DNA of 63,964 bases, the filler included, from Lenisia limosa (Eukaryota; Protista; Breviatea), in assembly GCA_001655205.1 (NCBI GenBank). It is 14 parts of 14 records of this genome, joined end to end, with 100 filler letters (N's around TTAATTAATTAA, not from the genome) between each part and the next. Parts side by side here need not be neighbours in the genome. Positions count along the whole stretch, not along the records: positions 1 to 5,730 come from LPNZ01003796.1; positions 5,831 to 10,453 come from LPNZ01009810.1; positions 10,554 to 12,300 come from LPNZ01009939.1; positions 12,401 to 14,816 come from LPNZ01001039.1; positions 14,917 to 21,070 come from LPNZ01010815.1; positions 21,171 to 25,195 come from LPNZ01003300.1; positions 25,296 to 40,474 come from LPNZ01001145.1; positions 40,575 to 46,927 come from LPNZ01010377.1; 6 more parts are not named here. One strand, 5' to 3'. This document shows, in pieces, positions 3,001 to 63,964 of this stretch. The stretch's first letter is position 1, and every line of letters begins with the position of its first letter. The notes below the pieces were generated by a model that was not told where the DNA came from, did no database searches, and saw only the letters and a list, made by a program, of their open reading frames with translations. The position numbers were made by a program, and so were the translations under genes.

Positions 3001-5479
3001 TCTGCACGTGACCATTTATCGTGTTCGTCGTGCAGAGCCGTCTCCAGCTCCGTGGCTCGGTCTGACTCGGCCACTACGGCGTCCTCAGCTGCCTGTCGTC
3101 CGGCACGGGCGGAGGATAGTTGAGCCGCCATCTCGTCCAGCTGATCTTGGAGATCGGCAGTGTCTTCAAGTTCGCGTCTGGGTGAGGAAGTATAGGTAAA
3201 TTTATGAAACAAAAAAATAGCCCATAATCAACTCTGTTGGCTAGCAACACACGAGGGTTGGGAACAAAACAAATAAAGCCTCTGGGGGGTGTGGATGTGA
3301 CAAAGGATACTTCGATGGTGTATTGGTTATAGGATTCTTTTTGGTAATAAAAAGACGAAACATATAAAAAAAACATCACCGAAATACTACACCCCACCCA
3401 TGCCAAATCATATCCTAGCACCAACAAGCCCCACCGCGCGGCCTGAAGGTCATCCTCCATTTTGGCGAGGTCATCACCAAGTCCGGCTCGGGCCTCGTGA
3501 CAAGCTTGTTCGTGGTTCCGCGACTCTGACGGGGGTGAAAAGTGGATATCTTTGAAACAAAAACCCAAAAAATACTTTTCAGGAAAGAATTGAGGGATTT
3601 TATATATCAGCAGCAACATACGATTTCCTGTGTATACAGTACAGTACATAACAAATTACTATCTGATAAATATGATACATCCACAAAACAAAGAAGATTG
3701 CACCCACCTTGAAGGGCCTCTTCTAAGTCTTTTCGCTCCTCTTCCAAGGCATCCATTTGTTCCTGTATTGTTAGGGGGTAAGGATGCAGTAAATACATTG
3801 CAAGTAAAGGCATTGTGAGTGAATACTTCGCTACCAATGAAACACTAATTTCCTTGGATCAGTTTCTCAAAATTGACAGTCCCGTGCGATTGCCTAACCT
3901 GCATGGCCTGGACAATAGACGCGTGATGCGCTTCTTGCTCAGCTAATGCGCGTGCTTCTGCCTCCTTTTGCGTTAGCATACATAATGACTCAAAAAGCGA
4001 TATGATGATGGGAGTTGTTAAAGAAATGGGCAACCTCGTTTCCTTAATAATTCCCTGTACCAAAAAGACCAGCTAAATAATATATGATATATTATCGACA
4101 CTCTTTGAGGATTTCTCTCTTAATTGGGACCTGAGGAAAAACCCAAGGCAGTAGAAAAACCATTGTCATAGTCTTAGAGAAATCTCATTGGAAATCAAAT
4201 CCCCACCTGGGCTTCCAAAGCAAGGCGTTCTCTGTCTCTGGCCTCCTCAATAGCCTTCATCGACGACGCATGCTCCATCTCCTGCTTCTCGCGTTCACGC
4301 TCCTGTCGCTCCTCCTCCAATAACCGCTTCATCTCGTCCTTGTCTGCAGGAGAGAGAGGGGGGGGGGGATGAAAATGGAAACNNNNNNNNNNNNNNNNNN
4401 NNNNNNNNNNNNNNNNNNNNNNNNNNNNNNNNNNNNNNNNNNNNNNNNNNNNNNNNNNNNNNNGCGGCTTGGGTGGACTTCTTATCCTCCTCAGTTTGCT
4501 AAATGGTTACCATTTTGGTCTTAAGGCTCAATACAATATGCACAACAAAACAGGAAATAGTAGTTTCATGTGAATATTTGTGCAGCTTTACAGGATTTGC
4601 CAGAGATTTTCGCCCAGGCCAGCCCCACCTGGACGTCATGCTGTCTGAATAGGGAGATGTAGGTGAGAATCGAGTGCTCATCCGGGAACTCAGCGACGTC
4701 CTCGGGATCTAGAATGGCAGGAATGCCAAGTTCGTTTTCGGCAATCTGGGAGGGGGATGAAGGGCATGATAAAAAATGAAGAAGCTGGTATCAGTGTAGT
4801 TCATTTCCATGTGCAAGATAGGGAATAATTACAATATACTGGACTTCAGCAGGTCACAAGTTCTGATAGTGTCACAGGGTTCAAATTAGAAGTTTACACA
4901 CTGTTTGATGGGAAGAATACGCCCCTTTCACCAACCTGGAAAGCCTCCCTCATGTCCTCAATCGGGTTATCCTAAAGGGTCAAATGTGGCAATGTTACAG
5001 GAGCTGTTTTTTGAAATATCGTATCAAAAGTATGTGATATGATATGTATACGTTTCTACTTCCCTTTACTTATCACATTCCCACTTACACCAGTAACACT
5101 ATCAACATTAAGGTTTCCCGGCGCGTAATGGTCAACAAGAGCGCTGAAAGCCTTGCCATCTTGGAAACTGAAAAGTCAGGTGAAACCACACGAAAAGCTT
5201 GTCCCATGCTGGCTCTTTGGGTATGATGGTGGCAAAAGTAGATCACACTGAAGCCTGGGGCCCCATCAACAATCGAGGTGATAAAGCACCAATCAATAAT
5301 CGAGGTGATAAAGCACCAATCAAAAATCGAGGTGATAAAGCACCAATCAACAATCGTTAGGCACCAATTCCCATCGCACTCGGTAGTGAGGTTTGACACC
5401 TGTATTTCGTCGTAGCCGGCCATGACGTCAGCGATCCAGGTCTTGACAGCAGCCTTGCCACCCCGGACCTTGGCCCCGT
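9..5479 (-). CDS. Multi-exon calponin-homology (CH) domain plus long coiled-coil protein, partial (5' end lost at the 5731-5830 linker; 3' end may run off the window)
   Basis: Spliced exons at 5479-4620 read KAAVKTWIADVMAGYDEIQVSNLTTDFQDGKAFSALVDHYAPG...IAENELGIPAILDPEDVAEFPDEHSILTYISLF, a typical CH signature. These are followed by heptad-rich E/A/L exons, including a large exon of about 2290-3177 (ORF 2277..3212). Confidence 0.8.
861..1054. repeat. Intronic minisatellite, 38-41 bp x5
   Basis: Unit ATCTAC(TAC)ATTGTTTAGCCTACTTGTTTTCCTTTTCATTT. Confidence 0.95.
1301..1388. mobile_element. Family A MITE. Further copies: 1692-1810, 11640-11725, about 16826-16915 (degenerate), 17843-17942, 22529-22583 (internally deleted), 47028-47120, 61427-61474
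   Basis: Same TIR sequences; TSDs absent or eroded. Confidence 0.85.
5265..5356. repeat. Intronic minisatellite, 27 bp x about 3.4
   Basis: Unit ATCAACAATCGAGGTGATAAAGCACCA. Confidence 0.95.
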
Positions 5480-5627
5480 CTGCAAAATGTCAGAGAAATA
5501 CCAAAGGTTTGGAAGTGGTAGGAGGAAAGAAACGGTCTAAGATGCAGAGTAGGAGGCTTGATAAAGTCCGATCTGCGTATTTGACGAAAGGCATCCGGAA
5601 AATCTTGAGAAGTCATTTTGCTCATAC

Positions 5628-5721
5628 TAGGGCTTCACTTCGGTTCAAAAAGACCGGTAAAAGATCGATAGTTTTCGAGGATTGAGAATTCAGTCTTTTT
5701 TCGAACCGAAGTGAAGCCCTA
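5628..5721. mobile_element. Family A hAT-like MITE
   Basis: TIR TAGGGCTTCACTTCGGTTC...GAACCGAAGTGAAGCCCTA; perfect 8-bp TSD GCTCATAC (5620-5627 and 5722-5729). Confidence 0.92.
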
Positions 5722-5775
5722 GCTCATACCNNNNNNNNNNNNNNNNNNNNNNNNNNNNNNNNNNNNNNNNNNNNT

Positions 5776-5787
5776 TAATTAATTAAN
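5776..5787. other. Artificial scaffold linker TTAATTAATTAA inside ~100-nt N gaps. Also at about 10498, 12345, 14861, 21115, 25240, 40519, 46972, 55150, 57334, 60203, 61702, 62908
   Basis: Identical 12-mer giving stops in all six frames, always centred in an N run. Confidence 0.97.
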
Positions 5788-61757: not shown

Positions 61758-62760
61758 TGAGACGGCGCAAATGAGAGAGCGTTGACGCGAAGGTTAGTCT
61801 GTGGCAAGATGAATTGATAATGATGAATAGAGATGTGCACGATGAATATGGGAAGTAGATTATCGAAACCGAACCATCAGGTATACTGTGATATTATCGT
61901 TAAAATATCGATATTATTGAGGATTTATCGAGAAATGCGTCAACTTTGAATTGATAGCTTAAAGATTCCATTTCGATCCAAAGAATGAATTGATAAATCA
62001 ACAGTGAATATGAGAACAAGGCATACTACAATTGATGTAGAAATTGACCCTACCTGTTCAGCACCTGCGACACACCAGGCTTGCCGTTGCCTTGTCCTTG
62101 TTCACCCCAGTTGCCCTGAGTAGTTAAAATGGTCATGTATGACTCGGCAGTCGATCATATGATCATGTCATAGGATGATATGGGTCAGTATTTCAACCCC
62201 CCCCCCCCCNNNNNNNNNNNNNNNNNNNNNNNNNNNNNNNNNNNNNNNNNNNNNNNNNNNNNNNNNNNNNNNNNNNNNNNNNNAGTAGCCAAAGAGTATT
62301 TGAGGCCATTAGAGATTGTGTTGGCGCGGACGGCGTGGTGGATGTTAATGGGCTTGTTGCTGTTGACTTGGCTTTGGACGTAACCACGGACCTAGGGGGA
62401 GAGGGGGAGTTGAATTGGAAAATTTAAGAACCAAAAAGAGATTGGACAATTATAAAACAAAAACAAAACAAAAAGCCCAAATCGATGATGGCTTAGCAAC
62501 AGGGGTGATGGTAAAGCGGGAAGGAGACGGGGGGTGGGGAATGCATTGAAGTTCAATGAAACTAGGATCATAGAGATCCGGGGGTTGTGTATTGAGAAAG
62601 AACTACAGCATGTAACTAATGCTAGAAATGCTACAAAAGCCAACCTCCTTTGTCATTCGTCGGAAGAGTTGTCGGAAGAGGCTGTGCATTAGCGGTCCGG
62701 CCAGCTCACAACGCTTGTTGGAGTAGTGGTCTCTGTCGTCAATGGGGCGGCGACCTTGTT
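61758..62760 (-). CDS. RPB2: RNA polymerase II second-largest subunit, internal fragment
   Basis: [48 protein letters not shown]...[21 protein letters not shown]. Confidence 0.93.
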
Positions 62761-63240
62761 TGTTAGGGGGGAAAGTGGAGGACGGTGCAGCGCGTTAAAC
62801 AGCCCCCCCCCCCACACAAAAAATATAGCAATGAGAAATAAAAAAATAAGGTTGTATATGACTNNNNNNNNNNNNNNNNNNNNNNNNNNNNNNNNNNNNN
62901 NNNNNNNTTAATTAATTAANNNNNNNNNNNNNNNNNNNNNNNNNNNNNNNNNNNNNNNNNNNNGGGGGGGGGGGGCTAATAACAATTATGAAACTGCTGT
63001 GAGGAGAACTTTTTGATGGGTTTTTTGGTTGGTTCTCTTACACTACGTACGGCGCATCGACTTGACATCCCATGCAATATATCTATCTCTTCATCACGCC
63101 TGATTTTTGGTTTTGTCTTGTTCAAAAGCGACTGGCCTTTGTTTGTTTTGTTAATATCAACCCTTGTGTGTTGTCAGCCAACAAAGTTGATTTGAGCTTT
63201 GATTTGTTTCATAACTTTCCAATTTTACCCTCCCCCCCAG

Positions 63241-63835
63241 ATTTGGATTTCCCCACACAGGATGATAGCATGGGGTCTCCCCTTGCCCTTCCGGAGACTG
63301 AAATGAGGTGGGGCTTTTGGAGTTTTTGTTGTTTTTTTTTACGTTTTTGATGAATATTTTACGTTTTTGATTAATATTTTACGTTTTTGATTAATATTTT
63401 ACGCTTCTCAATTTACTCTTGTACTGTGTTATTTTGTGTTACTACTATTTATGAAGATTTTGTCATTTTATTTTTCTGTCATATATGATTCGTATTTGTT
63501 AACACTATTTAGCCGAAGTTCCCCAACAATCCAGTACCCTGACAGATCCCCAGCTGTAGGCTAACAAGCTTATAAATGTATCGATATAATAAAATACACT
63601 ATATCATATTATAGATATTCAATCCAAACATTATGTTCCCTCAATTATTTAAGTCTTGTAGTATATCAATATAGGTAAACAAAATTTAGCCCACTAACCA
63701 TACAGATGACGCACATTGCTCCTGCTGCCTCGTCACGGAGCCTCAAACAATCGTATGTGTATTCCAAATGTCCCATTTTTACTCGTATTTTGCTTCACTT
63801 TTATACCCCCCCCTCCCCAGCAAGAATATAATTTC
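63241..63835 (+). CDS. Probable short exons of an unidentified gene
   Basis: AG..GT-bounded GC-richer blocks at 63241-63308, 63512-63555, 63706-63752 and 63821-63835. Confidence 0.35.
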
Positions 63836-63964
63836 GTGTGTTGTCAGCCAACACACCCGGTTCCTAAATATACACTGTATCTTTACTTTGTTTTGTTGTT
63901 ATCAACCCTTGTGTGTTGTTCGCCAACAGAGTTGATTTGGGGTTTTTTTTGTCTCATAAATTTC

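Follow-up and report, generated by a model that had tools for sequence, protein, structure and literature searches.

Introners are short, non-autonomous, multicopy elements that carry or recruit splice signals. They are defined by similarity extending up to both intron boundaries, and the pipelines used to find them filter out insertions into pre-existing introns (PMC9860276 and PMC12130899, in the sections available). Some introner families also lack terminal inverted repeats (TIRs) and target site duplications (TSDs), and the mechanism of many is given as unknown in those sections (PMC9860276, PMC12130899). The introner elements of Micromonas and the introner-like elements of fungi lie on the coding strand, form GT-AG units and are proposed to spread via intron RNA; each copy is a complete intron at a new position, and a stable structure is predicted for the fungal ones (PMC4540971 and PMC3609843, available parts). 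Family B, described here, is a dispersed repeat in a stretch of 63,964 nucleotides from the breviate Lenisia limosa (assembly GCA_001655205.1), the whole of which is called the window below. B shares shortness, non-autonomy, copy number and the carriage of splice signals with introners, but it reaches the 3' intron boundary only and no intron creation by it is seen. Unlike the Micromonas and fungal elements, it occurs as a 3' part, often truncated, at acceptors that already exist, and its structure is unremarkable. B is an intron-associated mobile element carrying splice signals, yet not an introner by definition.

Short interspersed elements (SINEs) and other non-long terminal repeat (non-LTR) retroposons are copied by target-primed reverse transcription. 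B resembles them in its constant 3' end with a simple-sequence tail, its ragged 5' end and perhaps its variable direct repeats. It differs in having a C-run instead of a poly(A) tail and in its head, since no Rfam match to a tRNA, 7SL or 5S-type head was found in the window at the gathering score or in the full copy at E≤5. Antisense Alu is a further parallel, its pyrimidine-rich strand serving as an acceptor signal as B does; B is enriched at acceptors, whereas mammalian retroposons are depleted there, and mammalian transposable elements (TEs) as a whole are scarcer near acceptors than near donors (PMC3088655, part available). Replitron-1 and N1 of Chlamydomonas have orientation-specific insertion after RG, a variable TSD and a variable right end, features that B may share; no HUH transposase is linked to B, and Replitrons, unlike B, are not reported as confined to acceptors in the available part of PMC10288648.

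The window, from an intron-rich genome, consists of 14 short scaffolds with 100-nt N linkers between them (stop codons in all frames; 5731-5830 and 12 more), so the spacing between B copies has no meaning. Further N gaps mostly adjoin poly-C or poly-G runs at splice sites, and intron ends are hidden there. Four extra contigs (L113-L116) bring the sample to about 84 kb. They were traced by a B pattern scan of prokaryote genomes to G001, a bin labelled bacterial (contigs C39, C43, C67 and C69), and lie outside the DNA behind the original prediction of this family. All four are eukaryotic and intron-bearing and contain the window's repeat families; G001, filed as a bacterial metagenome-assembled genome, thus includes eukaryotic contigs with the repeats of this organism. 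B was found in L116 alone when 12 additional small G001 contigs were checked, and JGI metagenomes and IMG/VR gave no match to its pattern. Two public runs contain window sequence, X1 (contigs, 0.92 of words) and X2 (polyA RNA contigs); the two stem from a single study, and neither provides evidence independent of the assembly.

With a profile made from 12 pieces, B is detected at 22 loci, 14 in the window and eight in L113-L116; the reversed-sequence control gave zero matches at E≤1. Two lone matches with E>0.4 (16699-16752 and 45766-45869) were excluded from the count. About 12 dispersed copies had been predicted in the window, and the 14 loci lie where they were expected. The window copies, together with two pieces outside the 22 loci, are as follows.

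3178-3280, minus strand: 5'-truncated B at the acceptor of a CH/coiled-coil gene (profile, flank test, open frames)
3526-3577, minus strand: B tail only, weak (E 0.13), at an acceptor (profile, modelled introns)
5858-5958, minus strand: degenerate B with a head fragment (5908-5931) at a scaffold edge; outside the 22 loci
12972-13061, minus strand: degenerate B reaching the acceptor (profile)
13387-13520, minus strand: 5'-truncated B (13387-13474) after an older tail (13476-13520), at an acceptor (profile)
15843-15972, minus strand: near-full B in the S8 protease intron 15811-16080, without an AG of its own (RNA joint, depth profile)
16388-16437, minus strand: tail-like fragment 21 nt before the acceptor 16367; outside the 22 loci
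22284-22408, minus strand: B with head, forming the 3' end of the TPR gene intron 22284-22662 (RNA contig pieces)
25096-25195, minus strand: B cut by the scaffold end, at an acceptor (RNA loose end)
46414-46478, plus strand: old tail followed by a B head, the remainder in an N gap, in a kinase intron
56183-56267, minus strand: diverged B in the CNOT1 intron 56140-56597 (profile, Pfam, frame)
57889-57977, minus strand: B head and tail with the core absent, forming the 3' end of the PSMA5 intron 57889-58408 (P0002)
60769-61022, minus strand: two B units flanking a miniature inverted-repeat transposable element (MITE) of family A with an 8-bp TSD, the acceptor in an N gap; 61004-61022 is a B fragment (head-only or tail-only)
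62392-62512, minus strand: degenerate B with a doubled tail, forming the 3' end of the RPB2 intron 62392-62644 (RPB2 homology, profile)
63123-63240, plus strand: well-preserved B ending at the modelled acceptor 63240 (profile, ab initio exon)
63834-63964, plus strand: two-unit B stack after an acceptor-like C-run and AG (63820), cut by the window end

Genome-wide abundance can be gauged from X1, in which 2,617 records align to a 421-base stretch around the 15843 copy, 806 of them only partly. Summed depth, which is not a copy number, is 26-41 in the flanks, 40-46 thousand in the tail, up to 495 thousand in the core and 2-3 thousand in the head. Simple bounds from these depths, about 480 to 15,000, point to hundreds to thousands of B copies in the genome. 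An inverted repeat around the 15843 copy, considered as a part of B, was rejected as single-copy in the DNA run.

The best full copy (L113:5349-5489) is 141 nt long, 94% like the consensus, and runs from GTGATG to a C-run and AG, as the GT...AG full-length unit with a GTGATG head had been described. The full unit measures 141-148 nt, longer than the ~130 bp first proposed. It comprises a head starting with GTGATG, a core that contains a 5-bp inverted repeat and is flanked on each side by a T-rich repeat, and a tail composed of TTTTAC (branch-point-like), a C-run and AG. The ends are not complementary, in line with the predicted lack of TIRs. Copies are 79-95% like the consensus. Their 3' end is nearly constant, almost all extending to the tail, while the 5' ends are ragged, with starts spanning consensus positions 1 to 92; the 5' truncation noticed earlier is frequent, and the higher summed depth of the tail compared with the head agrees with it. 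The core can be missing, as at 57889. Three of the best-preserved copies have the C-rich run followed at once by AG, most older copies diverge after the first C's, and the terminal AG may be the element's own or the host's.

Position was scored at 18 loci with a visible acceptor; the other four comprise two gaps, one window edge and the L115 copy. B runs into the acceptor at 15 of the 18, and at six of seven scorable loci when the extra contigs are taken alone. Family A, the TIR-bearing control, ends at the acceptor in 0/7 introns and lies nearer the acceptor in only 3/7 (B versus A at the acceptor, p 2.5e-4; extra contigs alone, p 0.005). Among fully sequenced introns tested, B is nearer the 3' end in 7/7 (combined p 8e-4). 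A B-tail match at z of at least 6 occurs in only 7 of 106 modelled introns (two of 108 having been removed for a gap or a wrong end), so the tail is not a generic pyrimidine tract.

Seven copies had been proposed to supply the acceptor itself, and the evidence for this is graded. RNA contig record 10 connects 22282 with 22662 and departs from the genomic sequence at 25096, and therefore the B-terminal AGs at 22284 and 25096 are used. The transcript-derived protein P0002 joins PSMA5 K32 to L33 at 57889. By homology, the acceptor 62392 joins human RPB2 residues 414 and 415. For 3178 and 13387 the support is a frame that stays open through the intron, and for 63240 it is an ab initio exon, with a second AG at 63260. 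P0004 was rejected as a splice check for 3178, as it is an unspliced genomic open reading frame and a singleton; homologue searches with the CNOT1 exon and the long CH-gene exon gave no spliced protein. Missing RNA cover at other loci was given no evidential weight. Two copies had been seen to end short of the acceptor, and they do: an RNA joint at 15810-16081 places the 15843 copy 32 nt short of the used acceptor 15811, and the AG of the CNOT1 copy (56183) lies 43 nt before the in-frame acceptor, where its use would break the frame.

B is sense to the host gene at 21 of 22 loci, and at seven of eight in the extra contigs. The bias has p 5e-6 at 50:50, and p 0.007-0.024 at the sense bias of T-runs; no antisense-strand match is present among the 106 modelled introns. 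Host strands come from Pfam or PDB matches for seven genes and from ab initio exons for the others. Pfam has matches to the kinase, CNOT1 and S8 exons and weak ones to those of CH and TPR (E 0.04-0.05); for PSMA5 and RPB2 the matches are to solved structures. The seven hosts named earlier, CH, S8, TPR, kinase, CNOT1, PSMA5 and RPB2, are accordingly all sense, CH and TPR less firmly. The L114 host is presumably galactokinase-like (a 24-25 aa exon without Pfam or PDB match). B is spread unevenly among genes, as seen from a long gene at window positions 36033-40425 (minus strand), which we take to be NRDE2-like and which has about 30 short introns and zero copies.

The similarity of B loci does not extend to both intron ends, and the term introner-like of the original prediction has to be given up, while its placing of B in the 3' part of longer introns stands. 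In 7/7 complete introns 108-555 nt remain upstream of B. These remainders are unrelated, with z>3 in one of 21 pairwise comparisons, a low-complexity one. If B were a classical introner whose 141-nt GT-AG units became these introns, with later growth at the 5' end, this would explain why L113:5349-5489 reads GT to AG, why B is on the coding strand like the Micromonas introners (PMC4540971, available part), and why B is spliced out, RNA contigs lacking it. Against this, an intron consisting of B alone occurs at 0/106 modelled introns and 0/22 loci, intact heads sit 250-430 nt inside introns, and the upstream parts are unrelated between loci whereas B remains 79-95% like its consensus; this origin is very unlikely. 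The PSMA5 intron position K32|L33 is presumably common to human and plant genes; nearly all of 80 metagenome PSMA5 loci are intronless and none has an intron there, an uninformative sample.

The predicted internal hairpin is present as a nearly invariant 5-bp stem, but its stability is unremarkable. A functional structured intronic RNA or splicing signal under selection could account for this stem and for six short RNA-run contigs that match B, contigs that may equally be pre-mRNA or DNA. The fold z of B lies between -0.98 and +1.15 (8/8 sequences), no Rfam match was found, and covariation, proposed earlier as a check, gave compensatory change in 0/5 stem pairs. At 57889 and 62392 the intron works although the core has been lost or has decayed, and the 5' and 3' ends of introns pair no better than shuffled partners (p 0.19). 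The multicopy structured RNA of the original prediction is accordingly the least credible account of B, and we give it hardly any weight.

TIRs with a fixed-length TSD, the marks of a MITE, are found in family A of the same introns and not in B. B has the constant 3' end and frequent 5' truncation of SINEs and non-LTR retroposons. Taken together, a 3' end that stays constant, 5' ends that vary, the direct repeats of some copies and the old intron ends upstream argue for reverse transcription primed at the target, an end pattern typical of non-LTR retroposons. We therefore favor, at about even odds of its being right, copying of B from its 3' end into existing acceptor tracts by target-primed reverse transcription, with the splice site rebuilt. 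New copies would enter existing introns in register at the C-rich acceptor tract, where sense B RNA would be reverse-transcribed, priming at the tract, probably by homology. Copying would begin at the 3' end and often halt early, giving 5'-truncated copies, and the old intron end would stay just upstream. With the exon junction unchanged, the mRNA would not be altered and a copy would be nearly neutral. The targets that match best would be older B tails, giving head-to-tail stacks, and TTTTAC may serve as the branch point. The earlier idea of a mobile element that is aimed at 3' splice sites and regenerates them fits the data and holds in L113-L116, with the aiming itself the presumed part. 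No partner enzyme was found in the ~84 kb, where no transposase test was made, and neither an empty site nor a branch point was seen there.

Traces of older intron ends lie upstream of B. The 22 nt before the 5' junction resemble an intron end (14 flanks versus 939 interior windows, p 0.001). The 3178 copy has an old acceptor-like C-run and AG just 5' and a 6-nt direct repeat, CCCAGA, and the 22284 copy is bracketed by an 11-nt direct repeat, CCTCCCTCACT, 3 nt before the exon. Three of ten copies have own-locus direct repeats, 6-11 nt long, weakly above swapped pairs (permutation p 0.03-0.04). An older B tail directly precedes two of the five head-bearing copies, including L113:5349-5489, and head-to-tail stacks are present at eight of the 22 loci, with p 2e-6 on the assumption that every intron is equally eligible.

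The same splice-site outcome is predicted by spread at the DNA level, either by repair of breaks in the C/G-rich acceptor tract from an ectopic B tail, through gene conversion or synthesis-dependent annealing, or by a Replitron-like HUH transposase inserting after AG. Stacks and old upstream tails suit homology-driven copying of this kind. In three of the five head-bearing copies the head follows A, giving an AG/TGATG junction, as in the orientation-specific insertion after RG, with variable TSDs and fuzzy right ends, of Replitron-1 (PMC10288648, available part); with a tail-like sequence before two of five heads, these comparisons comprise five copies only. Conversion alone leaves the head common to unrelated loci unexplained, a 2-nt target occurs everywhere and would not restrict B to acceptors, and the Replitron-1 pattern, as described in the available part of PMC10288648, does not include ragged 5' ends. 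A DNA route is, on balance, unlikely.

Selection could also produce the distribution of B, if an untargeted non-autonomous element were spared only where harmless, in the acceptor tract or without an AG. Mid-intron sense copies would then make cryptic acceptors, and antisense, A-rich copies would disturb transcripts. The non-terminal copies indeed mostly lack an AG after the C-run (15843, 60769, L113:225, L113:3836 and L115; exception, 56183). Family D is sense-only without being bound to acceptors, the L115 copy may lie outside an intron, and in mammalian introns selection influences where TEs lie and in which orientation (PMC3088655, part available). For each in-register position, each intron has about 100 antisense or mid-intron ones, and 15 terminal and zero clear antisense loci would require antisense fixation to be hundreds of times rarer. 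The MITEs of families A, C and E are tolerated mid-intron, and the mammalian case is one of depletion near acceptors instead of enrichment (PMC3088655, same part). Selection without targeting is improbable as well.

Several observations count against target-primed copying into acceptor tracts. B stops 32-55 nt before the acceptor at three of 18 loci, and the CNOT1 copy at 56183 carries an unused AG. The near-full copy L115:1447-1572 has no sense host that could be found; it may lie between genes or antisense to a gene on the minus strand. Family D copies are likewise sense (9/9) yet mostly mid-intron, and a general force may set repeat orientation. In 97 B-free introns, G-rich tracts occur near donors (19) as often as C-rich tracts do near acceptors (15). 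A plain C-run target would therefore predict antisense B at donors; none was seen, and any target of B must be more specific than a C-run. The flank test is unable to separate targeting from survival of in-tract insertions. The direct repeats give a weak signal, and B's own tail accounts for one of the three cases; the excess of stacks loses significance once only long introns count as eligible (p 0.2). The contrast between head and tail depth is possibly inflated by alignments that break in the T-rich linker. Most exons are ab initio models, B junctions were partly placed by eye, and the sample is ~84 kb.

A bolder and doubtful version of copying from RNA is acceptor homing, in which the spliced-out, intron-shaped RNA would join, 3' end first, the exon side of an existing junction and be copied to DNA. 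The RNA would be of unit length when B's own GT is used, and B would spread via the splicing pathway, rewriting the 3' splice sites of about one-tenth of introns. No natural family of partial-reverse-splicing products was found in literature searches.

Other repeats accompany B. Family A is a ~100-nt MITE with TIRs, scattered through introns, with 8-bp TSDs in the three copies checked; we take it to be hAT-like. Family D is a ~85-nt repeat with high X1 depth, and the word GTGATGG is common to it and to the B head. It was considered as a GT-AG mini-intron and rejected, since its common sequence begins ~18 nt upstream of its GTGATG. Families C and E are two further intronic families with TIRs.

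1299-1390, 1690-1808, 5626-5722, 11638-11722 and 12781-12880: family A, first five copies
17842-17940, 22528-22579, 49832-49932 and 60888-60988: family A, other four copies
15143-15176, 22750-22830, 31120-31168, 42458-42518, 45527-45590, 55208-55268 and 62822-62863: family D in the window
L113:5153-5207 and L113:7614-7664: family D in L113
13678-13815, 15605-15637 and 63042-63078; 19126-19170, 41130-41299, 56993-57072 and 57485-57533: families C and E

A 2.3-kb element at L113 1415-3755 has long inverted ends and transposase-like reading frames and interrupts a B stack; we assume it to be pogo/Tc5-like. Similar frames occur at L114 1282-1822 and L115 239-1076. Tandem arrays of 41, 27 and ~22 nt lie in or near introns (window 809-1055, 22879-23079 and 5270-5355), and the 41-nt array overlaps the end of a modelled CH-gene exon. 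In the modelled introns G-runs often follow donors and C-runs often precede acceptors, and a YTNAY motif is most frequent 9-12 nt upstream of the acceptor. The idea that G-rich intron starts pair with C-rich intron ends was dropped, own partners being no better than shuffled ones.

In literature searches, mainly of open-access full texts, no family that occupies and rebuilds existing acceptors was found, and a prior mention is possible. Acceptor regions are normally the most TE-depleted (PMC3088655, part available), and an element such as B that rebuilds the signal would follow a safe-haven strategy. Introner surveys would miss B by design, because insertions into pre-existing introns are filtered (PMC9860276 and PMC12130899, in the sections available). 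With B, splice-signal turnover could be studied over hundreds to thousands of dated events within a single genome, and it could be tested whether intron RNA re-enters DNA at existing junctions. If true, acceptor homing would be a sign that partial reverse splicing takes place at existing junctions, which has been proposed as one step of intron mobility.

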